The translations under genes and the position numbers were made by a program. From positions 4,898,001 through 4,962,000 of the forward strand of contig OZ024741.1 in assembly GCA_964016885.1 (NCBI GenBank): 64,000 nucleotides of DNA. Reading direction: 5' to 3'. The DNA comes from Eledone cirrhosa. Taxonomy: Eukaryota. How positions within the stretch are numbered: the stretch's first letter is position 1; each line of letters starts with the position of its first letter. Shown piece after piece: positions 5,447-52,075 of the stretch. The notes beneath the pieces are model-generated. The model searched no databases and was not told the DNA's origin. It saw nothing but the letters and a program-made list of their open reading frames with translations.

Positions 5447-6140
5447 GGGATGAAGAAAAAACACACACAGATACTTCTAAATTGTCAGCAGCAGCAAGAC
5501 ATAAGCTGACCACAACACCAACAACACTACAGAAATAATGGTAGAGGTCAAATGTATTTAACAATAGCAAACACAAACACTACAGGGAGCCTCACCCCAG
5601 AAAGAATTTCTATAGACTTCTGACTGAGGAATGCTCTCAACACTGACCAATGGGAAGTTTGACATTTTTTTGTTATTTTGTTCCTTTACCACCTTGTTCC
5701 TTCTACCACTTTATCAATTTTTTAAGCTAACTCCAACAATAACAACACTACCAACACAAGAATTGAGGTCAGATGTACCTAACAATAACAAGAACAACAA
5801 CTACAGATTGGCTTGCCTCAGAAAGAACTTCTATAGTCTTTTGAATGAGGAATGTTCTAACAACTGACCAATGAGAGGAGAAGAGGCCCTTTGACACTGA
5901 AATTCGTTTGTTTGAATTCATGATTCCAGTTCCTCAGTGAAATAACGACCCAACCAGGAACTGGGCATATAAAGAGTATTGACAAAATTATACAGCTCAA
6001 CAACATATGTACTTGTCTATACCACACTAATTTGGACTGCCTGAAGAGGTCACAGCCAAAGATGGCTGTCACCGAAATATATATAGCAGTAATAAACGAA
6101 GCTAAATTTTAAACATTTGACTTTTTATTTTACTTTATTT
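5447..6140 (+). mobile_element. solo PLE pseudo-LTR-like repeat
   Basis: Two ctgaccaatg (CCAAT) sub-repeats, a catataaa TATA-like site near 5966, an HHR, then AATAAA at 6091; flanked by (TA)n. Confidence 0.6.
6036..6090 (+). ncRNA. type I hammerhead ribozyme
   Basis: ACTGC-CTGAAGA-GGTcACAGCCA aaga TGGCTGTcACC-GAAA-TATATA-TA-GCAGT: perfect stem I, long stem II, palindromic minimal stem III. Confidence 0.88.
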
Positions 6141-8262: not shown

Positions 8263-8290
8263 TTTATGTATATATATATATATATATCTG

Positions 8291-11596: not shown

Positions 11597-14131
11597 CAGT
11601 GGGAATTCCTGAAAGCAAACCTGCTGATGGCAGCAGACGAAGTCTGTGGCTGGAGCAGGCCTGTAGGCTGGAGGAGAGTAACATGGTGGTGGAACAGTAA
11701 GGTGGAGGGGTCAATCAAGGCCAAAAAGCAGGCTTGGAAAGCATGGCGGGATGGGGGAAGTAGAGAAGACTATCAAGTGGCCAGGAGAGAAGCTAGGAGA
11801 CAAGTGTACTTCGCAAGAAGGGAAGCGGAGGAAAGAAAGTTCAAGCATGTTCTATAACGCGAAGACCAAAATCGTGATGTGTTCAGGATTGCTAGGCAAT
11901 GTGTCAAGGAAAACCGTGATATTGTCGGGGAGAAGTGTGTCCTTAACGATGATGGCGTACTTGCCCTCACTGACGCTGATAAGAAGGTAACTTGGAAGTG
12001 TCACTACGAAAGGCTACTAAATGAGGAGAATAAATGGGAGAAAGACAGTCTCCCCCACATCGACCCAATAGAGGGACCAGCAGTGTTACTCGAAGGTAGT
12101 ATAAGTAAGGCAATCAAAGATATGAAGAGGGGTAAGGCGGCTGGGCCTTCGGAAATAGTTGCTGAGATGCTGAAAGCCTCTGGTACGGTGGGACACACCA
12201 TGGTCACCCGGATAGTAAACCAAGTCATACAGAATGGGGTTGTTCCGAAGGACTGGCGTAGCAGCATCATCGTTAACTGTTACAAGGGTAAAGGAGACGC
12301 CCTAGATAGGAGTAACTATAGAGGCATTAAATTAATCGACCAGGTCATGAAGGTCACGGAAAAAGTAATAGCGCAACTAATCAGAGAGAGAATTGATCTA
12401 GATGAAATGCAGTTCGGGTTTGTGTCAGGCAAAAGTACCACAGACGCTCTTTTCATTGTACGACAACTACAGGAGAAGTACCTAGCTAAAAGTAAACCCC
12501 TATACGTAGCTTTTGTCGCCTTGGAGAAAGCCTTCGACAGAGTCCCCCGTTCCATTATCTGGTGGGCTCTTAGAAAACTAGGTGTTGACGAATGGCTTGT
12601 GAGAGCGATACAAGCCATGTATAAAGAAACAGTCAGCAAGGTTAGAATTAACAACGAACATAGTGAAGAGTTTAGCGTAAAAGTTGGCGTCCATCAGGGC
12701 TCTGTTCTCAGCCCCCTACTATTTATTATTGCCCTTCAGGCTATAACAGAGGAGTTCAAGACCGGCTGCCCATGGGAACTCCTATACGCAGACGACCTGA
12801 CACTCATAGCTGAATCAATGGCCGAGCTAGAGAAGAAATTCCAAACATGGAAGCATGGCCTACAATCAAAAGGACTTAAAATTAACCTGGCTAAGACTAA
12901 AGTTCTAGTTTGTAGGAAAGAAGATAAGGCGGCGGTCCCTTCTGGAAAATGGCCATGCTCAGTGTGTAGGAAAGGCGTAGGTAGAAACTCCATTTTATGT
13001 CCCAAATGCAAAGTATGGGTGCATAAAAGATGTAGTGGGATCACAGGTAAGCTAACTAAGAAAATAGATTTTACATGTGGCCGGTGCTCTGGTGCAATAA
13101 GTAGCCGCAAGTGCCCACAAAATACTAGCTCTTTCAATTGCGCAGAGGGTTCTATATAAATAGTGGACAGCTTCCGTTACCTGGGTGACAAAATCAGCAG
13201 TGCGGGAGGGTGCTCTGAAAGTACAGTAGCTAGAGTCAGAACTGGATGGAAAAAGTTCAGAGAGCTTATACCACTATTAGCCGCTAAAGGGTTCTCCTTA
13301 AAAATGAAAGGCAGGTTGTATGATGCCTGCATACGAACAGCAATGTTGCATGGCAGTGAAACCTGGGCATTGTGTGCAGAGGATATACGCAGACTAGAGA
13401 GGAAGGAAGCTTGAATGCTCCGCTGGATGTGTAATAGTAATATACGTGAACGGCAAAGCATAAACGAACTAAAGAAAAAATTAGAAATAAGAGGGATCAG
13501 ATGTTGTTTACTCGAGAGAAGGCTACGTTGGTATGGTCACGTGATGCGCATGAAAGACGACAGCTGTATAACAAAGTGCAGGGCAATAAAGATAGATGGT
13601 AGCCACGGAGTAGGCAGACCCAGAAAAACCTGGGACGAGCTGATAAATTCCGACCTCACACACTTACACCTCTCCAAGACAATGTCACTGGACCGAGACC
13701 TTTGGCGGTACTCAGTAACAGAGAAGACCCGCCTTACCTAAATACAAAGTAAAACCTACTACAGTCAGGAGGCATCTCTAACAAAATACACCCCCGTCCC
13801 ACCACCCCCTCCCCATGCACACCGCCCCTTTCAATGCAAAGTTATGTTGGTGCCACAACATCCAGGCCGAAACAAATGAGATCGTGTAGGTGTCACGGCA
13901 AAAAAACACACAGTCCACTCTGTAATGTGGCCGTGTAGGTAACACGGTAAAAACCTCCCAGCTCCACACTGTAAATGTGGTTGGTGTTAGGAAGGGCATC
14001 CAGCTGTAGAAAACCCGCCAGACAGTCCTATGCGAGCAAGACAACCACTCTTGCCTCAAGTGGGAAAACCCCCGTCCAAACCCATGCAAGCGTGGAACAT
14101 GGACGTTAAACAATGATGATGATGATGATGA
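11597..14131 (+). mobile_element. 5'-truncated RTE-clade LINE
   Basis: TWWWN, YKGKGD..SNYRGIKL and all RT motifs; 3'UTR; (GAT)n tail; inserted in (TA)n. Confidence 0.95.
11627..13741 (+). pseudogene. RTE reverse transcriptase ORF with three in-frame stops
   Basis: ORFs 11627, 11879, 13163 and 13415 share one frame, broken by stops at 11855, 13157 and 13412; the motif-A Asp is changed (FVALEK versus FVDLEK in the other copy). Confidence 0.9.
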
Positions 14132-18366: not shown

Positions 18367-18516
18367 CAGGCACACATATATATATGTACGTATCAGTTTA
18401 GCGAACATTTATTATAATGTTCGGTTTGTTCGTTTGTAAACAAACGGACAGCCTGCTTTATGCCGTACGGTGTTATGGCAACCACGTCACCTTTTTGTTC
18501 AACACTGACACAGGAA

Positions 18517-18557
18517 CGATGTACTAGTTTCAAGCTTGTTAGCTATCGTCAGCACCG
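18517..18557 (-). ncRNA. minimal type I hammerhead
   Basis: Mirror copy of 18785-18825. Confidence 0.83.
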
Positions 18558-18784
18558 TATACCCTTCTGCCAGATGGTTGAACGTTCGAAAGTATATACT
18601 TTCCTTATGAAAATTAACGGCTGAGCAGCCTAATTTGCATATCGTTTCATTCTATTCCATTTATCGTTTTCGGTGCGCCTGGCCGACTGAACTCACTCGA
18701 TATGCAAATTAGGCTACTCAGCCGTTAATTTTCATAAGGAAAGTATATACTTTCGAACGTTCAACCATCTGGCAGAAGGGTATA

Positions 18785-18825
18785 CGGTGCTGACGATAGC
18801 TAACAAGCTTGAAACTAGTACATCG
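18785..18825 (+). ncRNA. minimal type I hammerhead
   Basis: CGGTG-CTGACGA-tAGCT aaca AGCTt-GAAA-CTAG-TA-CATCG; palindromic ACTAGT stem III. Confidence 0.85.
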
Positions 18826-19039
18826 TTCCTGTGTCAGTGTTGAACAAAAAGGTGACGTGGTTGCCTTAACACCGTACGTCATAAAGCAGGCTGTCCATTT
18901 GTTTACAAACGAACAAAGCGAACATTATAATAAATGTTCGCTAAACTGATACGTACATATACATATGTGTGCCTGTATGTATATATATATATGCATGCTA
19001 CTGTACGTCTGTATACATATATGTATGTACGTATAAATA

Positions 19040-22513: not shown

Positions 22514-23770
22514 AATACACACAGTCAGACACATATGCACACACATACACATACATACACACATCTCTACAAATACATATACATACACATACATACATAC
22601 ACATATATATACATACATATAATATATATATATATATGTGTATATACACTCATACACACATTTCCATGCGCACATATGTATTTTTTATACACACAAACAT
22701 ACATACACACTTACATACACATCCGATACATCTACGCTTACAAATACAAATAATTATTGGTGGGGGGGGGGGATTAAAATTATTAGTGGGAAATAGTAAA
22801 TATAGGTTTCAAGGAACATAGAATATTAATCTGCAGCTAAAACATATGTGTTTACATAGTTGTATCGGTTTTAGGAAATAGTATTTGTAAGAAAGAAGGC
22901 TAAATTATGTATTTTAATATAAGTAGAATATTAATTATAGGTTAACTAAGATAAAAATAGTTAATATATTAATTTCTAAGGTGTATACTACTTTGGTTTA
23001 TAATATTTAAAGCGGAATTTTGAAGTTAAACAGAAGTAGAGTATTAATTATAGCATAACTAAATTAAAAATAATTACATATATTAACATGATGGTATCAA
23101 ATTTAGGAAATGAATTTTGTAATAGGGAAAGCCAAATTAAGTATTTCATCGGTAGTATAATATTAATTATAGGTTAACCAAATTAAAAATTATATATTAA
23201 TTTCTATAGTATATGTTAATTAGGTTTATAATAACTAAAGCAAAATATTGTATTTTATCTATAGTAGAATTTTAATTATAGGTTAACTAAAATAAAAAAA
23301 ACCTATATATTAATTTGTAAAGTGTATATTAATTAGGTATATATTTAAAAGTTTTTCTCAGTTTATGATTACACGATATTCTGCAATCAATCTGTATTAG
23401 AATTTTAATTATAGTTAACTAAATAAAATTATAGGTTAACTAAATTAAAATTAATTTATATATTAATTTCTAAATTGTATATTAATAAGGTTTATAATAT
23501 TAAAAAGTATTTCCCCGTTATTAATTACACGATATTTTGTTGTATTTCATCTGTAAAAGAATTTTAATAATAGGTTAAATAAACTAAAATTAATCTATAT
23601 ATTAATTTCCAAAGTATATATTAATTATGTTAATAATATTTAAATGTTTTTCACAGTTTATGATTATACGATATTTTTTAATTTATCTGTAGTAGAATTT
23701 TAATTAAATTAAAATTATAGGTTAACTACATTAAAATTAATTTATATATTAATTTCTAAAATATATATTA

Positions 23771-24355
23771 TTAATTAGGTTTATAATATTTAAATGTTTT
23801 TCTTAGTTTATGATTACACGATATAATTAATTCTTGTCGCTTATTTAATAGGATATCCTTAGATTTCATTATTTCAAATAGTTCTTGGGAACACAATCTA
23901 CATTCATTTCTATTATTTTGATAAGGGGTGGCTCTTTTGAGCACACTCCAGGTCATATCATATTCTATATTCTTATTTCTATAACTATTAATTTTTTCTG
24001 CTAGAGATGTTGTATTGGCCAGTGCGGCATTTTTAAAACTATGTTTGTGGGTATTAAACCTTACCTTAAAATTGTTAGAAGTAGCTCCTATATATGAGCA
24101 AATAGAATCCTTAGTTTTAACTTTACATTTATAAACTATGTTGTTAACAAGACAATTTCCTTTTAATGGGCAGTTTGCCTTGTTTCTACAGTTACCTTTC
24201 GTTAATTCTGTATTTGAGGAGATATTATGGTTAGTTTGATGTATTGGTGGTATACTTATGGTTTTTTTACATTTATATGCATTATAGGCGCTTATATTTT
24301 GTTTTATGTTTTTGGTTGTTGAGTATGAGAATTTAACTGTTGATCTATTTTGACT
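23771..24355 (-). pseudogene. Naiad-type PLE GIY-YIG C-terminal fragment
   Basis: CRNKANCPLKGNCLVNNIVYKCKV..YIGATSNNFKVRFNTH..W..CRLC..LLNKR..CNH. Confidence 0.85.
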
Positions 24356-24365
24356 GTGTGTATTT

Positions 24366-24396
<31 letters not shown>

Positions 24397-24525
24397 AAGT
24401 TATATTTAAAATTGTTGGGTTACAACTAGTAAATATTTATAACTGATATAAAAGCACTCGACAAATATTTGGAGTATATTTACAATATTAAATAAATGGA
24501 AAACTATATTTATAAAACCATATTT

Positions 24526-24589
24526 ATTTCATTATATATATTTCGGGGATATCATATTAACAATATGCTATGCCTTCATCAGACAAAAT
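24526..24589 (-). ncRNA. type I hammerhead in pLTR
   Basis: Mirror of 24759-24822. Confidence 0.78.
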
Positions 24590-24758
24590 ACAATATAAAC
24601 AGTTTTATAGATAAATATATTCAACATACCGTAATAAACATCAACTTCATTTGAAGAGGTTTACGCTAGCAGTCACTGCTAGCGTAAACCTCTTCAAATG
24701 AAGTTGATGTTTATTACGGTATGTTGAATATATTTATCTATAAAACTGTTTATATTGT

Positions 24759-24822
24759 ATTTTGTCTGATGAAGGCATAGCATATTGTTAATATGATATC
24801 CCCGAAATATATATAATGAAAT
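24759..24822 (+). ncRNA. type I hammerhead in pLTR
   Basis: ATTTTGT-CTGATGA-long stem II (catatt gtt aatatg)-GAAA-TATATA-TA-ATGAAAT. Confidence 0.8.
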
Positions 24823-24957
24823 AAATATGGTTTTATAAATATAGTTTTCCATTTATTTAATATTGTAAATATACTCCAAATATTTGTCGAGTGCTTTTAT
24901 ATCAGTTATAAATATTTACTAGTTGTAACCCAACAATTTTAAATATAACTTTACATG

Positions 24958-24998
<41 letters not shown>

Positions 24999-25000
<2 letters not shown>

Positions 25001-25589
25001 CACACAGTCAAAATAGATCAACAGTTAAATTCTCATACTCAACAACCAAAAACATAAAACAAAATATAAGCGCCTATAATGCATATAAATGTAAAAAAAC
25101 CATAAGTATACCACCAATACATCAACTAACCATAATATCTCCTCAAATACAGAATTAACGAAAGGTAACTGTAGAAACAAGGCAAACTGCCCATTAAAAG
25201 GAAATTGTCTTGTTAACAACATAGTTTATAAATGTAAAGTTAAAACTAAGGATTCTATTTGCTCATATATAGGAGCTACTTCTAACAATTTTAAGGTAAG
25301 GTTTAATACCCACAAACATAGTTTTAAAAATGCCGCACTGGCCAATACAACATCTCTAGCAGAAAAAATTAATAGTTATAGAAATAAGAATATAGAATAT
25401 GATATGACCTGGAGTGTGCTCAAAAGAGCCACCCCTTATCAAAATAATAGAAATGAATGTAGATTGTGTTCCCAAGAACTATTTGAAATAATGAAATCTA
25501 AGGATATCCTATTAAATAAGCGACAAGAATTAATTATATCGTGTAATCATAAACTAAGAAAAACATTTAAATATTATAAACCTAATTAA
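24999..25589 (+). pseudogene. Naiad-type PLE GIY-YIG C-terminal fragment (mirror copy)
   Basis: NRSTVKFSYSTTKN... then CRNKANCPL...; mirror of 23771-24355. Confidence 0.85.
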
Positions 25590-26814
25590 TAATATATATT
25601 TTAGAAATTAATATATAAATTAATTTTAATGTAGTTAACCTATAATTTTAATTTAATTAAAATTCTACTACAGATAAATTAAAAAATATCGTATAATCAT
25701 AAACTGTGAAAAACATTTAAATATTATTAACATAATTAATATATACTTTGGAAATTAATATATAGATTAATTTTAGTTTATTTAACCTATTATTAAAATT
25801 CTTTTACAGATGAAATACAACAAATATCGTGTAATTAATAACGGGGAAATACTTTTTAATATTATAAACCTTATTAATATACAATTTAGAAATTAATATA
25901 TAAATTAATTTTAATTTAGTTAACCCTATAATTTTAATTTAGTTAACTTATAATTAAAATTCTAATACAGATTGATTGCAGAATATCGTGTAATCATAAA
26001 CTGAGAAAAACTTTTAAATATATACCTAATTAATATACACTTTACAAATTAATATATAGGTTTTTTTTATTTTAGTTAACCTATAATTTAAAATTCTACT
26101 ATAGATAAAATACAATATTTTGCTTTAGTTATTATAAACCTAATTAACATATACTATAGAAATTAATATATAATTTTTAATTTGGTTAACCTATAATTAA
26201 TATTATACTACGATGAAATACTTAATTTGGCTTTCCCTATTACAAAATTCATTTCCTAAATTTGATACCATCATGTTAATATATGTAATTATTTTTAATT
26301 TAGTTATGCTATAATTAATACTCTACTTCTGTTTAACTTCAAAATTCCGCTTTAAATATTATAAACCAAAGTAGTATACACCTTAGAAATTAATATATTA
26401 ACTATTTTTATCTTAGTTAACCTATAATTAATATTCTACTTATATTAAAATACATAATTTAGCCTTCTTTCTTACAAATACTATTTCCTAAAACCGATAC
26501 AACTATGTAAACACATATGTTTTAGCTGCAGATTAATATTCTATGTTCCTTGAAACCTATATTTACTATTTCCACTAATAATTTTAATCCCCCCCCCCCC
26601 ACCAATAATTATTTGTATTTGTAAGCGTAGATGTATGGATGTGTATGTAAGTGTGTATGTATGTTTGTGTGTATAAAAATACATATGTGCGCATGGAAAT
26701 GTGTGTATGAGTGTATATACACATATATATATATATATTATATGTATATATATGTGTATGTATGTATGTGTATGTATATGTATTTGTAGAGATGTGTGTA
26801 TGTATGTGTATGTG

Positions 26815-30324: not shown

Positions 30325-30520
30325 TTTATTTTTACTTTTATTTTATTCTTATCCTTTATCGTCTATTATTACCTTTCATTCTTCAATGTCTTGGATTTGT
30401 TATTGCTTGTATGGTATGTAATTAACCTTTATGCTCTGATGAGTCCCACTTATAGTGCGGATGAAACAATGTTAGCAAGTAAAGATATGCATATGCTATA
30501 AGCGTTCTTTGTTATTTATT
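29040..30520 (+). mobile_element. probable PLE 3'UTR/pLTR
   Basis: Non-coding; internal ~80-bp and 30-bp tandem duplications and (TTTTTA)n; ends with an HHR just before (TA)n. Confidence 0.55.
30427..30484 (+). ncRNA. type I hammerhead with bulged stem I
   Basis: CTTTATGCT-CTGATGA-GTCCcACT tat AGTgcGGAT-GAAAC aat GTT-AGCA(ag)TAAAG. Confidence 0.82.
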
Positions 30521-30653
30521 ATTTATATATATATATATGTATATATATATATGTATATATATATGTGTGTATATATATATATACATATATATGTATATAT
30601 ATCTATATATATGTATATATATCTATATATATGTATATATATCTATATATATG

Positions 30654-30704
<51 letters not shown>

Positions 30705-30773
30705 GTATATATATATGTATTATATATATATATATATGTATATGTATATATTATATATGTATATATTATATAG

Positions 30774-30806
<33 letters not shown>

Positions 30807-30807
30807 G

Positions 30808-30898
<91 letters not shown>

Positions 30899-31107
30899 GT
30901 ATAATATATATATATGTATATATATATATATATGTATATATATATGTATATAATATATGTATATATATATATGTATATATAAATATGTATATATATATAT
31001 GTATATATATATGTATATATATATATGTATATGTATATATATATATGTATATATATATATATGTATATATATACATATATACGTATATATATATGTATAT
31101 GTATATG

Positions 31108-31149
<42 letters not shown>

Positions 31150-31238
31150 TATGTATATGTATATTTATATATATATATATATTATTATATATATATATAT
31201 ATATATATATAGTATGTATATATATAATATATATTATA

Positions 31239-31306
<68 letters not shown>

Positions 31307-31327
31307 ATATATATATATTATATATAT

Positions 31328-31402
<75 letters not shown>

Positions 31403-31476
31403 ATATTATATATATATTATATATATTATATATATATATTATATAATATTTATATATATAATATATATATATTATA

Positions 31477-31511
<35 letters not shown>

Positions 31512-31597
31512 ATTATATATATATATAAATAAGATATATATATATTATAGATATTATATATATTATAGATATATATATATATATATATATATTATAG

Positions 31598-31662
<65 letters not shown>

Positions 31663-31796
31663 TATATATTATATATATATTATAATATATATATATATAT
31701 ATTATATATATATATATATATATTATATAATATATATATATATATATATATAATATATATATATTATATATATATTATATATTATATTAATATATA

Positions 31797-31840
<44 letters not shown>

Positions 31841-32147
31841 TATATATATATAATATTATATATATATATATATATATTATATAATATATAATATATATAT
31901 ATAATATTATATTATATATATTTATATATATATAAATATATAATATATATATATATATATATTATATTATATATAATATATTATATATATATATTATATA
32001 TATATATATATTAATATAAATATATATATATATATTATATATATATATATATATTATATATATATATATATATATATTATTATATATATATATATATAAT
32101 ATTATATATATATATATTATATATATAATATATATTATATATTATAT

Positions 32148-32187
<40 letters not shown>

Positions 32188-32262
32188 TATTATATATTTA
32201 TATATATATATATATATTAATATTATATATATATATATTTATATATATATAATATATATAAT

Positions 32263-32293
<31 letters not shown>

Positions 32294-32341
32294 TCTATAT
32301 ATATATATATATATATATATTATCTATATATATATATATAT
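30520..32341. repeat. (TA)n microsatellite with TTA/TAA variants
   Basis: Directly visible. Confidence 0.97.
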
Positions 32342-35200
32342 ATTGGAATAAATGCTCTGAAATTGCGATATATATGTGAATATAGACATAGAATATTCGA
32401 AAATATTCTGTATGTTTATAATAAACATTTGAAGACCTAATCGCTATAGAATAGAATACGTCACGTATTACAATTAGATTCTCGATAAAAGCAAGGGAAG
32501 TAATCTACGCGTTTCATTCTTGTTAGAAATCTTCAGACTACATATCCAGTGCTTTTATCGAGAATGAGCACAGCGCTAGAGACTTATAGAAATCTTAGCT
32601 GTGTACAGGAACTGTTTGAAAGAGCGGTTGCCGGTCCGGCAGAAATTAGAAATTGGAATAAATGCTCTGAAATAGCGATATATATGTGAATATAGACATA
32701 GAATATTCGAAAATATTCTGTATGTTTATAATAAACATTTTGAAGACCTAATCGCTATAGAATAGAATACGTCACGCATTACAATTAGATTCTCGATAAA
32801 AGCAAGGAAGTAATCTACGCGTTTCATTCTTGTTAGAAATCTTCAGGACTACATATCCAGTGCTTTTATCGAGAATGACACAGCTAGAGACTTATAGAAT
32901 ACTTAGCTGTGTACAGGAACTGGTTTGAAAGAGCGGTTGCCGGTCCGGCAGAAATTAGAAATTGGAATAAATGCTCTGAAATAGCGATATATATGTGAAT
33001 ATAGACATAGAATATTCGAAAATATTCTGTATGTTTATAATAAACATTTTGAAGACCTAATCGCTATAGAATAGAATACGTCACGTATTACAATTAGATT
33101 CCGATAAAAGCAAGGGAAGTAATCTACGCGTTTCATTCTTGTTAGAAATCTTCAGGACTACATATCCAGTGCTTTTATCGAGAACATACAGAATATTTTC
33201 GAATATTCTATGTCTATATTCACATATATATCGCTATTTCAGAGCATTTATTCCAATTTCTAATTTCTGCCGGACCGGCAACCGCTCTTTCAAGCCAGTT
33301 CCTGTACACAGCTAAGTATTCTATAAGTCTCTAGCTGTGTCATTCTCGATAAAAGCACTGGATATGTAGCCCTGAAGATTTCTAACAAGAATGAAACGCG
33401 TAGATTACTTCCCTTGCTTTTATCGAGAATCTAATTGTAATACGTGACGTATTCTATTCTATAGCGATTAGGTCTTCAAAATGTTTATTATAAACATACA
33501 GAATATTTTCGAATATTCTATGTCTATATTCACATATATATCGCTATTTCAGAGCATTTATTCCAATTTCTAATTTCTGCCGGACCGGCAACCGCTCTTT
33601 CAAACCAGTTCCTGTACACAGCTAAGTATTCTATAAGTCTCTAGCTGTGTCATTCTCGATAAAAGCACTGGATATGTAGTCCTAAAGATTTCTAACAAGA
33701 ATGAAACGCGTAGATTACTTCCCTTGCTTTTATCGAGAATCTAATTGTAATACGTGACGTATTCTATTTTATAGCGATTAGGTCTTCAAAATGTTTATTA
33801 TAAACATACAGAATATTTTCGAATATTCTATGTCTATATTCACATATATATCGCTATTTCAGAGCATTTATTCCAATTTCTAATTTCTGCCGGACCGGCA
33901 ACCGCTCTTTCAAACCAGTTCCTGTACACAGCTAAGTATTCTATAAGTCTCTAGCTGTGTCATTCTCGATAAAAGCACTGGATATGTAGTCCTGAAGATT
34001 TCTAACAAGAATGAAACGCGTAGATTACTTCCCTTGCTTTTATCGAGAATCTAATTGTAATACGTGACGTATTCTATTCTATAGCGATTAGGTCTTCAAA
34101 ATGTTTATTATAAACATACAGAATATTTTCGAATATTCTATGTCTATATTCACATATATATCGCTATTTCAGAGCATTTATTCCAATTTCTAATTTCTGC
34201 CGGACCGGCAACCGCTCTTTCAAACCAGTTCCTGTACACAGCTAAGTATTCTATAAGTCTCTAGCTGTGTCATTCTCGATAAAAGCACTGGATATGTAGT
34301 CCTGAAGATTTCTAACAAGAATGAAACGCGTAGATTACTTCCCTTGCTTTTATCGAGAATCTAATTGTAATACGTGACGTATTCTATTCTATAGCGATTA
34401 GGTCTTCAAAATGTTTATTATAAACATACAGAATATTTTCGAATATTCTATGTCTATATTCACATATATATCGCTATTTCAGAGCATTTATTCCAATTTC
34501 TAATTTCTGCCGGACCGGCAACCGCTCTTTCAAACCAGTTCCTGTACACAGCTAAGTATTCTATAAGTCTCTAGCTGTGTCATTCTCGATAAAAGCACTG
34601 GATATGTAGTCCTGAAGATTTCTAACAAGAATGAAACGCGTAGATTACTTCCCTTGCTTTTATCGAGAATCTAATTGTAATACGTGACGTATTCTATTCT
34701 ATAGCGATTAGGTCTTCAAATGTTTATTATAAACATACAGAATATTTTCGAATATTCTATGTCTATATTCACATATATATCGCTATTTCAGAGCATTTAT
34801 TCCAATTTCTAATTTCTGCCGGACCGGCAACCGCTCTTTCAAACCAGTTCCTGTACACAGCTAAGTATTCTATAAGTCTCTAGCTGTGTCATTCTCGATA
34901 AAAGCACTGGATATGTAGTCCTGAAGATTTCTAACAAGAATGAAACGCGTAGATTACTTCCCTTGCTTTTATCGAGAATCTAATTGTAATACGTGACGTA
35001 TTCTATTTTATAGCGATTAGGTCTTCAAAATGTTTATTATAAACATACAGAATATTTTCGAATATTCTATGTCTATATTCACATATATATCGCTATTTCA
35101 GCAGTTTATTCCAATTTCTAATTTCTGCCGGACCGGCAACCGCTCTTTCAAACCAGTTCCTGTACACAGCTAAGTATTCTATAAGTCTCTAGCTGTGTCA
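32342..35200. repeat. 310-bp hammerhead-containing tandem array (non-LTR retrozyme); ~2.7 units on - and ~6.5 units on +
   Basis: tagattac recurs at 33401, 33711, 34021, 34331, 34641 and 34950; orientation switch at ~33184; one HHR per unit; no ORF. Confidence 0.93.
33986..34028 (+). ncRNA. minimal type I hammerhead of the retrozyme unit (representative; also + 33366, 33676, 34296, 34606, 34915 and - 32500, 32810, 33119)
   Basis: GTAGTC-CTGAAGA-tTTCT aaca AGAAt-GAAA-CGCG-TA-GATTAC; cleavage predicted after GUA; palindromic ACGCGT stem III. Confidence 0.9.
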
Positions 35201-36463
<1,263 letters not shown>

Positions 36464-38180
36464 TATACGATATTAAACAAATGGAAACTATATTTATAAA
36501 ACCATATTTATTTCATTATACATATTTCCGGGATACCATATTAAAAATATGGCATGCCTTCTTCAGATAAAATAAAATATATAAGCAGTTTTATAAATAT
36601 ATTTGACGTACCATAAATATTGATCAACTTTTATGTAAGAAGTTGGTTTGGTAGTGAGATGTTTATAAATATTTAGTGTTAAGCACATTTAAAAAGAAAG
36701 ACGGAGAAAAAGAAGAAATGTATGTAAAGAAAAACAGAGAGAGATAGGGGAGAGAGAAATAGTGAGGAGGTGAAAATGAGAGGCAGCTGAGGCAACAGAT
36801 GAATAATAATAATTCATCATACAAATTGAGATATTTAGGAGGGAGGGAGTACTGTAATTATTTAGTTATAGTGTTAAGGAGACGGAGAGAAATAAAAAAT
36901 AAAGAGAAAACAGATAGGTAGAGAAAGATAGAGGTGGGGGGAAAAAGAGGTAGACCAAATAATAATAATTATATATGGGGAGGTGAGAGAAATAGGAGAG
37001 AAGTAAGAGAGAAGCTCGAGAGGCAAAGTTAAAATAACCGATACTTAAATTTCATCATGTATAAAGAGGGAGGAGAAGAAATAGCTATATCTAGAGAGAA
37101 GGATGATAGATTTACATCTTTATGTTATGTCCTATCAATTTGAATTATCAATTCATATGAATTGGGTATTATAATGTAAATATCAATATTCATGAATGAG
37201 ACATAGATATATAATGTGTGAAAAATAATGACCATATGTTTAGTTTAAAAATTCTTAGGTCGATGTACCAAAAACTGAGATAAAACTTCAAAAATACGGA
37301 AATACATAAGTATATATGTACTTTCCGGAAAAGGAAAGAAAGAGAAAAAGAAGGTCATCTCAAGTTCTAGTTGATACTATAGACATACCCGTGATCTTAC
37401 GTGATCAACTCTGTTTATTTCTTATTTCACAGAAAAAAAATTTCCCTTGTGTTATAAAAGATTTTACTATATATATATATACATAAATATATATACATAA
37501 AAATATATATTAATATTCCTGCCCTCACATACATGATTATCGTTCATGTATAGAATATTACGCATATCTGTAACATATCCAGAACTATAGCCACACATAC
37601 ATATATATATATATGCGTGCGCACATATATGTACATGGACAGATAAAATAAACAGATAAAATAGAATATACTCTGTAATCATTCCATATTCATATTAATA
37701 CATATGGCCTTTGCACAGAGACAACAGATATTAATATATCAGCACAGAGATATCAAAACGTTAAGAATATTTTCATCACTCCCTAGAGTGTCTCGGGCCG
37801 TAAAAAACACAGTATGTCCCCCATATATCAACCACAGAAATCTACCCTTCCAATTTATCTGACAATATATTGCCAAGTTCATTAGAAGCCATCAGAATCA
37901 AAAATCAAACAAAAAAACAAAAATTATTCAACAAAACTTATTTAGCAGAAATCATTTAAAAGATTTAGGAGACCCTGTTGTTCTACAGATGCTCTTATAT
38001 TTAGTATAGAAGTTTATCTCGCGTAAAATTTATTCAATAGATTGGGAGCATCAACATTTTAGGGTAGTTTAATTACATCATTAGTATATATTTATGAAGA
38101 AGGTTTAAAAGAAAAAGTTGAAGGAATCGAAAGATTTATCGTCAGGTTTCAGAATTAATTAAATATCTTAACTAAATATA

Positions 38181-40393
38181 CTACATTTTAAATTTATATT
38201 TATATTTAAACGTTGAGTTCAATCTATGTCTGCAGCAACTGAATAAATTGCTCCTTAAATTAAGGGAATTTTTAGATTTTAATATAAAAAATATCTCCTC
38301 CACACAGAGGTCACATGTCTCAGATGAGGAATTAAAAGGAATCCCTCTTGAGACTATATTCCAAAACATCGAATATCCAACGTTATCATGTTTAAGTTGC
38401 CAGAGTAAGCCTGATAGTGAAGTTGAAGATTTTTTGTTTGGATCTGTGAAAGAATTCTTATGATTATTATAGCGAAGTTTAAATTCTGTCGAGGTGGAAC
38501 CAACATAGTTAAAAGAATTTAAGTTAGTTTTAACATTACAATTGTATATTATATTTTTAACTAAGCAATTGTTATTTAACGGACATTTAGATTTATTTCT
38601 ACAGTTACAGTTGTTTAATTGAATATTGTTTAGGCTATTATCGGTATTTTGGCTAGGTTTTAGATTCCTATTATTTATTCTGTTAATATTTTGTGCTAAA
38701 TTTTTGGTGGACGAGTAAGTTAATTTTATAGTATGTCTATTAAAAATTGAGTGATATTTATGTGTTCTAGGGAAGCGTTTGTCAAGAGCATTAAAAAATA
38801 GTTTAGCAATGTGGGTTTTAATATTTAGTGAGAAAGGGGGGGCAAACCATATTATATTTCTAGTTCTATTTCTTTTCTGGCTTTTTGAATTATTGTAATG
38901 TTTTCTATTATAGTTGTTAAAGTTGTTACCGTAATTAAAATTGTTGTTATTTTGGTTAGTTTGCCTATTATTATCGATGTACTTAATTTTATCACTATAT
39001 CCTGCTCTAGCTAACGCTTCATTGTAATACTGCGCTTTTTCGTCGAAAGTATTTTTATTAGATGAAATTCTTGAGATACGTTCTTGAACAGAGTTCACTA
39101 TAGTATTTTTAACAGATCTGGGGTGATTAGAGTTAAAACTGACATAATTCAAGTTTTCATTTAGTTTGTGAAATGGATAGCGAAGACATGTGTTGAGATT
39201 TAGTGTTACATCTAGGAAATTGACTATTCTATGGTTATTCTCTATTTCTATTTTTAGATTAAGGTAATTAAAAAATTGTATAATTTGTTTTCTTTTTCTA
39301 TTTAGTTCAGAGTTATTATTTTCAATAAGTAAAAAGCATGTCATCACGATATAATCCTCCGGTTACACCAGGTATTTTTCTATGCAGCGAATTAATTATA
39401 AATAGGCCCACAAGGTCCGTTACCTGAGCTGAGTCAGATGATCCCATAGTAATGTCGAAATTATTATCTCTATCTGCCCTAGTCCATAGTTGGTTATTCA
39501 ATTCTATCAATGTTTTCCTTGCCGATAATATAATGTGCATTTCATTGCTAGTTAGGTCTGTATGTTTGAATGCGTAATTTAGTGCCTTATTCAGTAGATT
39601 AGGGGTAATAGATGAATAGTAGTTAGCAATATCTAGTTGAATAAATTTATTATTATTGTTATATTTAATTTCTTTAAACCACTCAATAACCTCACCAGTT
39701 CCCTTCCATACGTTTAAGTTAGGTAAATTATGTAAGTTTTTAATTTGCTGTATCACCCTGTCTAGAATGTTTTTACTAAGTTTACCCAGGTCAGATTTTG
39801 ATGGTGCAATCAATCTGACTGGCAAATCATTTTCAAAATTTCTTTTGTGATCTTTCATATTGATCTTGGGTTTCCTAGGCAAGAAGGGTTGTGTTTTGTT
39901 CTCAATGTCCAACTCATGCATTATACAAGATGCCTCAACATTCGTTTTTTCCAGTTCGTCCTTATCTGCTACCTTGTACTTTTTCCTTAGTTCTTTCAGT
40001 ATACATGTCTTTTTGCACTCCATAAAGGTTGTTGGTTTTGTCCGATTTCACCAAGATCTTCTCTGTTCTCTCCAAGCTTTCAATATTATCCTTAATGCTT
40101 CTTAGATAGTCCTGGCCTTTGAAGTTTCTCTTGAATTTGACTCCTTGTATGATAGAAAATATATCGTTTTCAAAATCCATTAAAAGTTTGTTGGGGGGTG
40201 GATTTTTTTTAGATTTGAAAAATTTATCTAAGTCTGAAACATTTTCATTTAGATTAGATTTATCAAAGTGGAAGGCACGCCACCTGATTCTTCTTATAAA
40301 AGAGTCTGATTTTTCTATTAATTGTTTAATAAAGTCTTTATTCTTAGGTAGAGGTATGTCTTTTAGAGAAGAAGATATCTTAAAGAATTCCAT
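38181..40393 (-). pseudogene. Naiad RT+GIY-YIG ORF with two frameshifts
   Basis: S.KDIPLP, RIRWRA, VKSDKTNNLY, KDHK..RLIAP.KSDLGK, LDIANYYSSI, FDITMGS.D, GLYRDD, NFLDVT, CNCR..CPL..YVGST..FK.RY.NH. Confidence 0.92.
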
Positions 40394-43299: not shown

Positions 43300-45330
43300 A
43301 GAATTAATAAATCTGTACTCCAATGTTACTATGTAGTCGCATTGGTTGGAGTCAACCGACGTAGGATTCAAGACTGTCAGAGTAGTAGAGATTGTATAAA
43401 GGAAAATGTTTTGGCAGCAGTTAGCTAAATGAGGCGTGTTAAGGTTGGCGGGGGGAGTAAATTCTTCTAGTGGTGTTGTTTGGACAAAATTTAGTTAAAG
43501 GGGTCAATGTAGTACAGAATTATAGACAAGTTATTGGGGCTATTATAGTAGCAGGATATTTCTAAATGGGTCTAAGAAACAGTGTTTAGTGCTATTATTA
43601 TAAAAAGCCATATCGTGTGTATAAACATATAAAAATATGAAATAAAAATAAAAATGTGCAAATGGTGGTGTAAAAAGATAACATTACATGCATTTAAAAA
43701 AAGAAAAAGTCGTTTTTAAACGATGGTTACAGTAAAGTGAACGTTCAATTTTGCTGTTCAAAAGTTTGTTTTCCGACTTTCAAATGCAGTATATCTCCAT
43801 ATTGCATAATTTACAAAATCGTTGATTTTGCTTATATGCTGGCGCAACTGAAATCATTTGCCAGTCAAGGGAGAATGCTTGATTGTTCTTCCGAAGCTAC
43901 CAGGCTTTATCGCCTAGGGTTGTTACGGAGCGCATTTTCTCATGCTTGATCGAAGATCGATGTTGGTATAGGCGAGCTTTGAAAGATGTTGCGGTACATC
44001 CGACGTAATACCATTTGTTGGTTCCGGAATTTATTGTACATCGGTAGACAATATTGCGTGCTAGGCATTGGTTAATCAATGGACACGAACCTGGTTTAGT
44101 GCAGCTACAGTTATTTGTATGTTTTGCAGTAGTATTCTGGATAGTTTGGTGGGGTTGTAGCTGCGTGTTAGTGCGTTGTATGTCGCTATGCTGGTGCGCT
44201 GTGTCATTAGGGATGTACTTATTTAGTATTGTTGAGTTGAGTTTTTTAATTAGTTGTTCTATGTTAGGTGCAGTGGAGTATGAGAGTCTAATGGTGCGCG
44301 AGTTTAAGATTTTATAGTATTTATGTGAAGTTGTAAAGTGTTTATTGATCAGTGTATAGAATTCTGAGATAATCTTAGTGCTAATAGAAATATTGTACAC
44401 GGGGTTATACCATATGTACTCTCTACGTCTAACTCTATTTGTTGGTTTGCACCTATTATTATGCCTATTAATGTGTCTGTGTGGTGCAATACTAGTTCGA
44501 CTTAGATGTGATTTATTCATAGTACCTATGTGGTTATCTTCTAGATATTCTATTTTCTCGCAGTAACCAGCTTTTCTAAGTGCGTCGTTATAATACTCAG
44601 CATGCTCGTTGAAGGTCTGCAAATTAGACGATAGTCGGGAGATCCTTATGGATATATTTTTAGGGATAGATTTAATAATGGAATGGGGGATGGTTCGATC
44701 TTACATTAACGTACTTGAGATTTTCATTAAGTTTGTGAAATGGCTCTATATTACCGTTATTAAGGTTGAAGGTGACATCCAAGAAGTTGACCACCTTAAG
44801 ATTGTGTTCGAAGGTAATATTAAGCCCTAGTTCTAAGAAAAGTTTCTTAATGGTTTTACGTTCGCCTTTCTAGGTTTTGTTTGTTCATATTCTTGACTAA
44901 TAGAAGTGTATCGTCGCGGTATATTCCGCCGTGGAGGTCCGTAAATTCGCTCTGGAGTCTGTGGGCTATATAGATCCCAACCATATCCGTGACCTCCGCC
45001 GAATCATTAGAACCCATCGTAATGTCGAATTCCGAGGGTCTATCTCTGCGGACTCAATAACTATTTTCAAAATGCACTACTGTGCGTCTAGCTTCAAGTA
45101 TAATATTAATTTCCTCGTTTGTGAGGTCCGAGTTAGTCTTAGCGAATGAGAGGGTCCTATGGAGAGTTTCAGGTGAAATAGAGGAATAGTATTCATCCCC
45201 ACTAGAAGAATTACACCACTAGAAGAATTTACTCCCCCCCCCCCGCCAACCTTAACACGCCTCATTTAGCTAAACAAGTGTTACCTAATAAATTATTTAT
45301 ACCCGCATTTCCGTTTCATAAACTTCTTCT
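43300..45330 (-). mobile_element. degenerate 5'-truncated Naiad-type PLE with short inverted 5' segment
   Basis: FDITMGSND, GIYRDD, IWYNP, CSC..CPL..YVGCT..FK.R; stops and frameshifts; 45213-45272 is the reverse complement of 43421-43476. Confidence 0.87.
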
Positions 45331-48132: not shown

Positions 48133-48175
<43 letters not shown>

Positions 48176-49329
48176 AAAAAGAGATGAAATCGAAAATGCA
48201 ACTAGAGTCTTATTTTTTTTTTTTTTTTTTTTAATATATATATTAAAAAATATATATATTTATTTGGTTCCTTTACCGGTTTCTCAGTTCTTCTGCTTTT
48301 CAAAGGGTGAATTGAGATGGAGGGTCTGTGGTTTTTCTCACATCTGGTTGGTCTCTGAATGTTACTTGTTTTATATGGAAAAAGTGGCTCGAAATGCCAG
48401 GTTTTTCGAGAAGTAATTTGATTGGTTTGTCAATAATTATAATAAATTTCGCGCCAGTTCGCGTTACAATAGTTCTTCAAATAAGAGAGGGGGGGGGGGG
48501 TTGTCACAGGTTGTTTTTCATATATGAGTGTTTGAATTTCTTTTTACTTGAAAAAAGGAGGCTCACGAAGGCTTTTTTTTGGTTGGTTATAAATGAAATT
48601 TGGCTGTCACGTGAACAAGTTTTCATTATATTTTTGCGCCCTTATTTGGAAAACTATTCTGTAGTCTTTATAGTGAATGTTATGACAATGGAGAGATAGT
48701 GGTCAAGAGAAAAGGGATTGGGAGAAATGTTCTGGTTCAGTGAATATGGCCAGCTCGCCGGGGTGTCAGAGTTCAGATTTTCTATTGAAGTGAAGATATG
48801 TATGTTTATTTGTGTGCTTGTGTGTGTGTATGTGTGTGTGTATGTGTGTATTGGAAGATAATTCTATTAGTAGAGATGGGGGAGGGTGTTGTGTGTGTGT
48901 GTATATGGGTGTTATGTGTGTGTGTGCGAGTATGTTAAGATGGAGAGAATATATATTTTGTGTGTGTGTATATATATATGTGTGTGTAGGAAAGTGGTTC
49001 TATTAGTAGAAATGGGGAGGGAGTTGTAGGTGTGGGGGTTGTTATGTGTGTGTATGGGTGTTATGTGTGTGGGAGTATGGTTAGCATGTTAAGATGAGGA
49101 GAATATATATATATATATATTGTGTGTGTGTATGTGTGTGTGTAGGAAAGTGATTCCTTTAGTAGGAATATTTTTGAATGAACATATTTTCCTTACTTTT
49201 TCGTGTTTGCTGTTGTATTGCCAGTGCAAACGTATGTTAAGGTTTATTTAGTTCGGGTTTTTATTTTCTAAAGTAGAAGGTGTTATGTGTGTGTGTGTAT
49301 GTCATATTGTGGTGTTGACATAATGTATA

Positions 49330-51660
49330 TTAAACCTTCTTTAATGTTGGTCTATATTTTTGAATAAACATATTTTCCTTATTTATTCGCATTTGTTCTG
49401 TTGTATTGTTAGCGCAAAGATAAAATGGGAAGACTTGGAATTTGGGTGTCTTATTACTTGCGCAAATGTCTAGATGTGCACTTAGTGGTATCTGTCTCGT
49501 GGTTGGATCTCGTAATTGTTGGCGATGAACTGTCATTCTGTTTCTGAGTGTGAGTTTAGTTTGTCCTATATAATCTTCATTGCATCCTTTACATTTAATG
49601 GCATAAATTAGATTTTTTGATGAGCAAGTGAAGTGATTTTTTACAGTAAAATTTTGTCCTGATTTAAATGTATACGTGTTGCCTTCAATGAGGTGAGTGC
49701 AGGTGCCACAATTAGAGCGACTACATTTTTTGATACTTGGTTGTGGGTTTGTGGTAGGTAATTTGGCATTGGTGAGTAATGTTTTCAGTGATTTGGGTTG
49801 TCTCTTGCTTTTGATTATTTTGTGTGTTTCAAGGGCTTTTTTCATTCTTGGGTTTTGTTTTAGTAGTGGGATGTTATTGTGAATAGTGTTGTAAGCTTCC
49901 GCATTTCTTGGGTTGTGTGTTGAGATATATGATAGAATATTGGACGTACCTTGAATTTGTTTCTGTTTCCGTAATTCATCAATGCCTATTGCTTTAGCCC
50001 TTTCTATTCCATTATTTATTAGTAATAGTGGGTACTCTCTCTCGAGTAGAATTTCCTTTAATTCTTGAAGTCTTTTATTTCGCGTTTCATAATTGGAGAC
50101 AATTGTGTAAATTCTTCTTGCTAGGTTAAAAGGAATGTTCGTCTTCGTGTGCTTTGGATGGTTGGAGGTGAATAGCAGATATTGTTTGGTATCTGTTGGT
50201 TTGTAATGTATGTCAGTTTCGATATTTGTGTCTTTTTTTGTGATTAAGATGTCCAGAAATGGGAGTTGATCTTGGCTGTATTCCATTGTGAATTGGATGT
50301 GGTTATTGATGCCGTTTATTAAGTTTTTGAAATCCTTCAGTTGGTCGAGTCTGTGGGACCAAAGAATGAGGCAATCATCCAAGTAGCGTTTCCAATTCTC
50401 TGATAAATATTTGTGGAAGTTCAATCCGTATTTTGATTTGGACTGTTCATATATCTGGACTTCTAAGTATGCCATGACTAAGTTGGCATAAGTTGGAGCG
50501 GCTTTTGTACCCATCGCAGTCCCCGATATTTGCTTGTAAGTATTGCCATCGAAATCAAAAAAGTTGTTCTGTAGGATGAATTTTAATCCCTCGGTGATGA
50601 AGCTTTTTTCTATTCTGTCAGGTATCTCATTGGGATATTTTTCTAGCCAGAATCCTATTGCTTCTAGTCCGTATTGGTGTGGGATCGTTGTGTAGAGATT
50701 CAATACATCGAAAGACCCAATAATAGTGTCGTTGTTGACATGTTTGGGGAGGTGGTTTAAGAGGTCCAGATCGTCTATTACAAGGCTTGGTATGTGTTTC
50801 AGTATTGGTTTCAGTAGTATGTCTATAAAGTTGCTCAATCTGTGTGTTTCACATTGTGGGCCCGCTACAATTGGTCTTAATTTAAGGTATGTGGGGTATT
50901 GTGTGTTCACGCAGGCTGAGGTGGATTGTTTACAGGCATCGTTGATTATTTTACATTTGTGGATCTTCGGAAGTCCGTAAAGGTTGCTGGTTTTGTATTC
51001 AAAATTTGTTAAATAATCGCGTTCCTTTTTAGTTAGGTCTTCCTGGTATCGATAAATCAGTGTGTTTAATTTGGTCATTATTTTTGATTGCTGGTAGTTT
51101 TTTACTCTTTCATAGTAATTAGTATTTTGTAAGAGAGAGAACATAGAATTTTTATATTTTTCAGCCTCCATAATGACAACAGTACTTCCCTTGTCCGCTT
51201 CCTTAATTACAATGTCCGTATTGTTTTTTAGTTCATGGATAATCTCCCATTCCCTTCGACTTGTGTTGGGTTTGGGTTTAGGTTGCGGTAGTTCATGGTA
51301 TGGGAAGGTAGCTATGTGGTCACAAAATTTGTCCAGAACTCTGTTTCTACCTTTTGTTGGGTTGTAGCTGCTTTTATTCCGTACAATTGATTCGTCGTTA
51401 TTCTCCTTGTCAAAGAATTCCTCTGTGAGACGTAATTTTCTACAGAAGTGTAAGATATCGTCATTTATCTCGTTGGGGTTAGGGTATTGTGGTGTTGGTG
51501 TGAATTTCAGACCTTTGGAGAGAATTTTTGCTTGTTGGGCTGAGAGGTTTGTATTTGAAATGTTAATTATTTTCGGTTTTTCAAAATCGGTTTGTGCCAC
51601 CGGGTGTCGTGAGTCCTGTAGCCTTGGTCTAAAAAATGATTTTTCTGGAATGTTTTTCAT
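49330..51660 (-). CDS. PLE reverse transcriptase-GIY-YIG endonuclease (776 aa, uninterrupted)
   Basis: KGLKFTPTP, IKEADKG, YGLPKIHK, LRPIV, FDVLNLYT.IP, GTAMGT.AAP.YANL, RYLDD, LPFLD, CxxxxCxxC linker, NLIY..C..C..YIGQT..R...H. Confidence 0.93.
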   Translation of the reverse strand: MKNIPEKSFFRPRLQDSRHPVAQTDFEKPKIINISNTNLSAQQAKILSKGLKFTPTPQYPNPNEINDDILHFCRKLRLTEEFFDKENNDESIVRNKSSYNPTKGRNRVLDKFCDHIATFPYHELPQPKPKPNTSRREWEIIHELKNNTDIVIKEADKGSTVVIMEAEKYKNSMFSLLQNTNYYERVKNYQQSKIMTKLNTLIYRYQEDLTKKERDYLTNFEYKTSNLYGLPKIHKCKIINDACKQSTSACVNTQYPTYLKLRPIVAGPQCETHRLSNFIDILLKPILKHIPSLVIDDLDLLNHLPKHVNNDTIIGSFDVLNLYTTIPHQYGLEAIGFWLEKYPNEIPDRIEKSFITEGLKFILQNNFFDFDGNTYKQISGTAMGTKAAPTYANLVMAYLEVQIYEQSKSKYGLNFHKYLSENWKRYLDDCLILWSHRLDQLKDFKNLINGINNHIQFTMEYSQDQLPFLDILITKKDTNIETDIHYKPTDTKQYLLFTSNHPKHTKTNIPFNLARRIYTIVSNYETRNKRLQELKEILLEREYPLLLINNGIERAKAIGIDELRKQKQIQGTSNILSYISTHNPRNAEAYNTIHNNIPLLKQNPRMKKALETHKIIKSKRQPKSLKTLLTNAKLPTTNPQPSIKKCSRSNCGTCTHLIEGNTYTFKSGQNFTVKNHFTCSSKNLIYAIKCKGCNEDYIGQTKLTLRNRMTVHRQQLRDPTTRQIPLSAHLDICASNKTPKFQVFPFYLCANNTTEQMRINKENMFIQKYRPTLKKV

Positions 51661-52075
51661 TGGTATTATTATATCTAATGGTATTTCCTCTGTTGTTGTG
51701 TGGTCTTGTATAGAAGTTTCGGACGTATTGAGGTTCGGTTTGTTGATAGTCCGGGTTGTAGATTTGGTTCCTTTGTGTGGGTTGGGATCTACGGTTTTGG
51801 AACAGGCTCTGTGTGGGCAGGGGTCTACGGTTTTGGAATAGGTTTTGTGTGGGTTGTGATCTGCGGTTCAGGTCCTGCCTTGTGTTCGGGGATCTTTGGT
51901 TTTTGTTAGTAGGGTTATAGTTTTGTCTATGGTTTCTGGGATTATCGTCATAGTTTTGCTGGGGGTATGTTGGACGTTTTGTTACTTTTTTTCTTATTTG
52001 TTGTGCATGTGGTGTGTGAGTTTTAGTTTGTTTTAAAAATGGGTTACCTGTATGTTGTTCATTTTTGAAGTCCAT
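51629..52075 (-). CDS. low-complexity N/Q/R-rich upstream ORF of the PLE (possibly truncated ORF1)
   Basis: 148-aa ORF overlapping the RT ORF start; three ~10-aa NRRSQPTQ-like repeats. Confidence 0.5.
   Translation of the reverse strand: MDFKNEQHTGNPFLKQTKTHTPHAQQIRKKVTKRPTYPQQNYDDNPRNHRQNYNPTNKNQRSPNTRQDLNRRSQPTQNLFQNRRPLPTQSLFQNRRSQPTQRNQIYNPDYQQTEPQYVRNFYTRPHNNRGNTIRYNNTNEKHSRKIIF

Follow-up and report, generated by a model that had tools for sequence, protein, structure and literature searches.

Head-to-head hammerhead arrays in (TA)n of Eledone cirrhosa: a dispersed 310-bp retrozyme family with insertion ends like those of Penelope-like elements

What process would place two arrays of one small ribozyme-bearing unit head to head inside a microsatellite? 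In the window (i.e., the whole stretch of 64,000 nucleotides of E. cirrhosa contig OZ024741.1 analyzed here), the region 32342-35201 consists of two oppositely oriented arrays of a 310-bp unit, flanked by long (TA)n runs (Table 1).

The locus and its hammerhead unit

A preliminary description of this DNA had read the region as a single head-to-tail tandem array; there are actually two inverted arms, with 2.7 units on the minus strand and 6.5 on the plus strand. As the arms start at different phases of the unit (bases 251 and 91), the inversion is not a mirror fold-back. The left end lies at unit base 165, the standard end of the family (see below). The right end, at unit base 251, has a single occurrence in the genome and likely results from a deletion after insertion, from a start at an aberrant position or from an error of the assembly. 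Indels in the arms are clustered close to the (TA)n edges.

The units are near-identical and non-coding, as had been described (98.6-99.6% identity to one unit; stop-free frames of no more than 59 codons); no ORF was found in the unit or attached to it in 40 loci scanned. The GC content of the region is 23-28%, (TA)n included. A complete hammerhead had been claimed for every unit, and this holds in part: all nine motifs show the order GTAGTC-CTGAAGA-helix II-GAAA-CGCG-TA-GATTAC, and six of the nine are intact. Helix I (GTAGTC/GATTAC) has 6 bp, the core CTGAAGA and GAAA segments are present, and helix II has 4 bp over a U.U; helix III is, as previously noted, only the palindrome ACGCGT, and cleavage is predicted past the GUA at 34022. 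The label "minimal" does not apply to this motif. Minimal hammerheads as defined in PMC4209133 are without helix III and have a helix II of 7-8 bp and a helix I of 4-5 bp, from which the unit's motif departs in all three respects (6-bp helix I, 4-bp helix II, palindromic helix III); it represents the canonical metazoan type I, for which dimeric action is expected according to the same source. The helix III self-duplex was computed at -7.5 kcal/mol, and the circular fold of the unit at -67.8 kcal/mol (z = -4.6, as compared to 100 dinucleotide shuffles). No Rfam family reached its gathering score over the window, a check that the preliminary description had proposed; the top sub-threshold match, Hammerhead_HH9, scored 16.5 bits where 52 are required (E = 0.44).

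Table 1. Features of the two-armed locus, in window coordinates
Feature	Position	Strand	Remarks
Left (TA)n microsatellite, insertion target	30520..32343	.	Outer end of left arm adjoins with AT overlap
Left arm, 2.7 units, sense on minus	32342..33184	-	Runs from unit base 251 to unit base 165
Head-to-head junction of both 5' ends	33183..33184	.	2-base overlap
Right arm, 6.5 units	33183..35201	+	Starts at unit base 91; end atypical (unit base 251, not 130-139)
Right (TA)n microsatellite	35200..36467	.	
Reference 310-nt unit, cleavage site to cleavage site	34023..34332	+	Base 1 is the first base past GUA
Intact type I hammerhead	33986..34028	+	Predicted cleavage after 34022
Further intact hammerheads	34296, 34606, 34915	+	
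Further intact hammerheads	33161, 32852	-	
Hammerhead with helix I mismatch	33366..33408	+	Mismatch at 33370
Hammerhead with core G5>A, predicted inactive	33676..33718	+	Change at 33684
Hammerhead with one-base helix I deletion	32500..32541	-	Deletion at 32536
16-bp perfect helix extending helix I and closing the ribozyme domain	33962..34050	+	33962-33977 with 34035-34050
Unit bases 130-139, (AT)4 stretch, first fixed end site	34152..34161	+	Putative priming site 1
Unit bases 140-165, "tail" between the end sites	34162..34187	+	Base 165, putative priming site 2
Unit bases 130-212, block with the highest conservation in families B and D	34152..34234	+	Candidate binding site of a PLE protein

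Insertion ends across the genome and the link to Penelope-like elements

The preliminary description had proposed a young, dispersed family, and the genome bears this out: a 20-base stretch of the hammerhead has 15,050 exact copies in the 3.0-Gb genome, and identical units were found on contigs C1-C6. The family comprises >1,000 insertions, with arms that directly abut (TA)n and lack LTRs, and its units are 98-100% identical over >1,000 sites. Genome-wide, 1,034 junctions between unit and (TA)n end at unit base 165 and 1,154 end at bases 130-139, as compared to none for reversed-pattern controls of both junction types.

Pairing of the two ends was assessed in two samples. Among 38 other loci listed among the best matches to the window's unit, a sample biased to the window's haplotype, 30 were two-armed; both ends were visible in 28 of these, all pairing an end at 130-139 with one at 164-172, and six of the eight single arms ended at 139. 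The second sample was drawn from the first 84 165-ends listed for contig C1, of which 79 (745 units) were retained; two of the others were second insertions inside a fetched stretch, and three loci had been covered by the first sample. An inverted partner arm was present in 73 of these 79 loci, with its end at 139 in 71, at 138 in one and running off in one; the other six were three single arms, an assembly gap, a run-off after 29 units and a 165 arm that was too short to be scored. Thus, in all 72 visible two-arm pairs of the second sample one end lies at 165 and the other at 130-139, i.e., 26-35 nt apart, with minor ends at 170/172. The value 139 is an alignment end, as the (AT)4 of the unit at 132-139 matches the target; in approximately half of the loci, the sequence is that of the target from base 131 onwards. 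At the end of the 139 arm, (TA)3 or longer followed directly in 64 of 72 loci, while the 165 ends had been selected with TA. The (TA)n targets would mask any target-site duplications, which in retrozymes exceed 4 bp when present. Arms have a median length of approximately 3-4 units, reach 29 or more and stop at scattered phases; the lengths of the two arms are weakly correlated within loci (rho = 0.29, P = 0.013, n = 72), and the joined 5' ends mostly overlap by 0-8 bases. In one locus (L134:1-8991), where one arm has at least 29 units, linked changes at bases 81 and 84 recur in 6 of 29 units.

By sequence, retrozymes are recognized as short (150-450 bp) non-coding units of low GC content that occur in tandem, each with a canonical type I hammerhead, and that are dispersed in many copies without LTRs. 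All of this applies to the family, which is almost certainly a real hammerhead retrozyme and for which cleavage and a circle are predicted. Three runs of unrecorded kind under other organism codes (X2, X3, X6) each contained one cyclic 340-nt contig (depth 10-26, 1-2 differences); as low-level DNA could give the same, these contigs were set aside as evidence for circles.

The insertion structure closely resembles that of PLEs, whose hallmarks are an inverted 5'-truncated copy, a tail of 30-40 bp at one end and, in Neptune and Naiad, a bias towards (TA)n (PMC8557442). An inverted 5'-truncated arm was observed here in 73/79 and 30/38 loci, a tail at one end only is given by the 130-139 and 165 ends, and the target is (TA)n as in Neptune and Naiad; the RT plus GIY-YIG ORF of an autonomous PLE is lacking in the unit. 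In vitro, an anole PLE cut and extended both strands of AT-rich DNA, two internal start sites on the RNA delimited the tail, and the protein is predicted to be dimeric (PMC11167929); uncleaved RNA was the main substrate used, the element's own hammerhead being dispensable (PMC11167929). The paired 130-139/165 ends represent the PLE tail signature, and the inversion and the fixed outer ends, both missed by the preliminary description, are the strongest evidence on which PLEs are named as the enzyme class. The family is thus very probably mobilized by a PLE, and this PLE is probably of the Neptune clade.

The genome contains 10,596 GIY-YIG candidates and Neptune-type PLEs with a CX2-5CxxC linker, hammerhead-bearing pLTRs and (TA)n ends, some of them two-armed (L199, L204, L213). 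A GIY-YIG search, a hammerhead scan and sensitive blastn over 50 of the GIY-YIG loci (30 top and 20 long-frame) and the other loci fetched revealed no pLTR with homology to the unit. A family D copy that adjoins a PLE at L140 is a two-armed insertion of its own. The window itself holds a Neptune-type frame of 845 codons with RT and GIY-YIG matches (49333-51867, minus strand) and, at 48172-48300, a hammerhead-like pLTR (near 48270-48300) that passes into (TA)n at 48172. The family of this 845-codon PLE is represented in L199 by a complete pLTR-ORF-pLTR copy; judged by eye, this copy ends approximately 65 nt further on, and its tail is therefore longer than that of the retrozyme. L213 and L204 carry fragments of autonomous Neptune-type PLEs as two head-to-head arms, with ends of unequal length in L213.

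Other elements were observed in the window. A second two-armed hammerhead element lies at 18400-18950 (motifs at 18552, minus, and 18790, plus; helix III palindrome ACTAGT) and is also found at L103:3100-6520, as an array of approximately 490-bp units. Further hammerhead-like motifs at 6041, 14367, 30436, 40627, 41829, 42271, 43103, 58061 and 58576 represent at least five sequence types, with several opposite-strand pairs. An inverted pair of degenerate 113-156-bp repeats (22922-23824 and 25536-26089) encloses two GIY-YIG-like frame fragments (23774-24436, minus; 25095-25586, plus), and the whole (22922-26089) is likely an old two-armed PLE. Retroelement fragments at 38184-40047 (minus), 43900-44700 (minus), 11858-13156 (plus) and 7478-8263 (minus) comprise a LINE-type RT that carries a PHD finger, and PLE-like frames to which no Pfam family matched.

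Two related families retain the end sites at homologous positions, i.e., family B (320 bp, 69% identical to the unit; ends at 142/168-175) and family D (306 bp, 68%; ends at 133/160). Unit bases 130-212 are the best conserved against both (77-79%, as compared to 60-66% in bases 1-68 and 213-310). The related families B, C and D, of which B has 1,077 candidates and D has 2,646, are older than the 310-bp family and show the same two-arm geometry; loci of these families include L064:6250-7160, L104:888-1300, L136:9017-9471 and L140:2439-2851. Families B and C have U3-A8 in place of C3-G8, a swap known from PLE hammerheads (PMC4209133). In helix II all four pairs are changed on both sides in related families with pairing retained, and the helix III palindromes differ among families. 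As helix I and the long helix were out of register between families in the MAFFT alignment, covariation was counted at C3-G8 and helix II only; the score was reached by none of 500 shuffles, with seven related sequences only. Judged from the circular-fold z and this covariation of core and helices, the hammerhead is more than chance.

Metazoan non-LTR retrozymes are known from newt satellite 2, axolotl (Amex1 and Amex2), mussel and coral (Cervera and de la Pena 2020, PMC7229834). The present family shares with them a low-GC non-coding tandem unit within their range of 170-400 nt, a canonical type I hammerhead, dispersal as dimers to multimers and PLEs in the same genome; its weak palindromic helix III resembles that of HHR_Amex1, and the U.U at the base of helix II that of HHR_Amex2. 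Unlike them as described in that paper, it shows two head-to-head arms, two fixed outer ends, a (TA)n target and clonal haplotypes across arms; conversely, expression and circles were demonstrated there and are predicted for the 310-bp family. The same paper offers circle-templated reverse transcription by PLEs as a hypothesis, and the words "inverted", "microsatellite" and "rolling" are absent from its main text. A retrozyme-PLE link and a unit of approximately 310-320 bp are also common to the animal retrozymes treated as non-autonomous PLE derivatives by Li, Clavereau and Pollet (bioRxiv 10.64898/2026.07.22.740005), where the evidence is co-occurrence and pLTR homology, local DNA amplification is suggested, and eight of nine Xenopus retrozyme dimers were without cleavage; that preprint uses neither the term "tail" nor "target site". 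Here, by contrast, the evidence is an insertion footprint, and a homologous pLTR was not found in the loci examined. With Neptune-clade EN+ PLEs (Craig et al. 2021, PMC8557442) and the Poseidon element PAc (Frangieh et al. 2024, PMC11167929) the family shares the inverted 5'-truncated arm, the tail at one end, the AT-rich or (TA)n target and a hammerhead upstream of two internal start sites. It differs from EN+ PLEs in lacking an ORF, in arms that are multimers of a 310-nt unit and in a tail of 26-35 nt; in addition, the PAc start sites are reported as non-homologous to the cut DNA (PMC11167929), whereas the retrozyme sites share AT or (AT)4 with the target. Retrozymes as such are already known; the insertion evidence presented here (two arms, fixed ends) was not found in the openly accessible papers searched, none of which reports a two-armed architecture with a tail in retrozymes.

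In L1 twin priming, two target ends prime one RNA, giving an inversion with short microhomology. The retrozyme would resemble it in the two ends, the single RNA and the inversion with short microhomology, and is unlike it in having no poly(A), in two fixed start sites 26-35 nt apart and in a first arm that runs past the site of the second primer.

Haplotypes and fixed changes as markers of the template

In the 79-locus sample, 153 variants were fixed within a locus, over 66 loci. A variant was fixed in all units of both arms in 64 of the 73 two-arm loci, as compared to an arm-specific variant in a single locus, and some single-locus variants fill 18-23 units, up to 23 of 23. As variants are fixed across both arms, both arms derive from a common template lineage that went through a one-unit bottleneck. 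We consider it likely that both arms were copied from one RNA, and a monomer circle is the favored, if less secure, candidate for the usual template. The preliminary description had taken the array for a reverse-transcribed multimer of one monomer; the clonal haplotypes over both arms agree with this, while one locus runs contrary to it. At that locus (L229:1100-7501), the two outermost hammerheads of both arms carry one haplotype and all inner ones another. The junction of this locus has a single occurrence in the assembly, and copying of the center from a donor with the same junction was rejected, as the assembly holds no such donor. This pattern argues that the two arms copied a common template in parallel and that this template was not a pure monomer circle; a chimeric multimer or a template switch would be required, which speaks for a linear multimer as the template of at least a part of the insertions. 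Fixed haplotypes would likewise arise if a clonal donor were transcribed as a clonal linear multimer. In a further locus (L122), a mosaic of 276A>G is confined to one of the two arms.

The 5' ends of arms coincided with the cleavage site in 3 of 146 cases (4.7 expected) and with the start site of the other arm in 11 of 73 (9.7 expected); an absence of enrichment at either site is expected of an endless template. Classical twin priming, in which the arms would collide, was rejected, as was stopping of the RT at cleaved ends, since the 5' ends show no pile-up at either site.

With the polarity of substitutions assumed from the rarer allele, A>G accounted for 9 of 27 distinct fixed substitutions as compared to 9 of 131 single-unit ones (P = 6 × 10-4). 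Seven fixed A>G changes fell in confident helices, as compared to no C>T at 25 C-G pairs (P = 0.035), and 276A>G recurs on four backgrounds. Among fixed changes, A>G did not significantly exceed T>C (9:3; P = 0.15). One possible explanation for the A>G excess is RNA editing, with one edited circle copied many times; selection favoring G.U-tolerant changes is an alternative. Pairing was kept by 8 of 9 fixed changes at confident pairs, as compared to 11 of 46 single-unit changes, and the sole pair-breaking fixed change, U.U to A-U at the base of helix II, disrupts the minimum-energy fold and not the hammerhead. This change is also among the commonest fixed changes, together with those at free core base 7 (49 loci) and in loop 2. 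None of 28 fixed changes fell in the 12 core bases, which is not significant alone (P = 0.33).

Proposed mechanism and its alternatives

The explanation we favor is that of a non-autonomous, non-coding, non-LTR retrozyme whose two arms would be made by the RT/endonuclease of a PLE, probably of the Neptune clade, priming from both (TA)n cut ends on one RNA, most likely a monomer circle. Arrays would be transcribed; tandem hammerheads would pair their palindromic helices III and excise 310-nt monomers, which a host ligase would circularize (as suggested by PMC7229834 and PMC4209133). A PLE protein, presumably bound near unit bases 130-212, would nick both strands of the (TA)n in which the insertions are observed. 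At the two observed end sites, the (AT)4 of bases 130-139 would serve as priming site for one DNA end and the AAT with its last base at 165 for the other, by analogy with PMC11167929. Each RT would then circle the template for the observed lengths (a median of approximately 3-4 units and a maximum of at least 29) and stop at a scattered phase, and the two 5' ends would be joined with the overlaps, mostly of 0-8 bases, seen at the junctions.

The same double priming by a PLE could act on a donor array's long read-through transcript that had escaped cleavage, or an RT pair could switch templates, circles then being by-products if made at all. The haplotype switch after two hammerheads in both arms of L229, with its unique junction, and the mosaic at L122 speak for such a template, as do the main use of uncleaved RNA by the anole PLE in vitro (PMC11167929) and the weak cleavage of most Xenopus dimers (10.64898/2026.07.22.740005). 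Transcripts of 29 or more units would, however, have to escape cleavage (L134), and without a one-unit bottleneck single-locus A>G changes fixed in 12-23 units of both arms would go unexplained; per-unit editing of a linear RNA would produce many partial patterns, whereas only one A>G site is partial, and the collision signature of classical twin priming is absent. We regard a read-through template as unlikely. Growth of arrays at the DNA level from a short PLE-derived insertion, by unequal crossing over and gene conversion, as Li, Clavereau and Pollet 2026 propose for retrozymes, would account for the periodic single-variant repeats inside some arms (L050, L111, L112, L134), which represent local DNA duplication or assembly repeats. 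It is very improbable as the origin of the arms, given variants fixed over both inverted arms in most two-arm loci, arms that begin at scattered phases and stay in register to a fixed end, and the 98-100% identity of units over >1,000 sites.

An assembly artefact, in which fold-back reads make the inversion and polishing homogenizes the units, could be suspected at the window locus from its clustered indels near the (TA)n edges and its unique right end. In the second sample, the 5' phases of the two arms lie within 5 bases of each other in no more than 6 of the 73 loci (chance expectation, 2.6), and this disagreement of arm phases rules out a mirror fold-back. As the outer ends also differ in a fixed manner, haplotypes are locus-specific, families B and D show the same geometry, and run X1 contains loose (TA)n ends at unit base 139, we give an artefact hardly any credence.

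Animal retrozymes have been proposed in print to return to DNA through a circle and the RT of a PLE, and the origin of PLE inverted arms with a tail at one end has been called undefined (PMC8557442). The family joins both questions in >1,000 near-identical insertions with exact start sites and internal haplotype markers, and precise predictions are available for an in vitro test of a 310-nt circle with a Neptune protein. Tentatively, and with less confidence than in the mechanism itself, one may envisage a population of circles that evolves as an RNA lineage under ribozyme selection, with two PLE RTs set 26-35 nt apart on an A-to-I-edited 310-nt circle and rolling from both ends of a (TA)n break; this could be the general origin of the inverted-plus-tail structure of PLEs, and with this family, retrotransposition from a circular template could be on record in animal sequence for the first time. 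If true, the retrozyme and its PLE would represent a natural rolling-circle writer of RNA into DNA that targets (TA)n.
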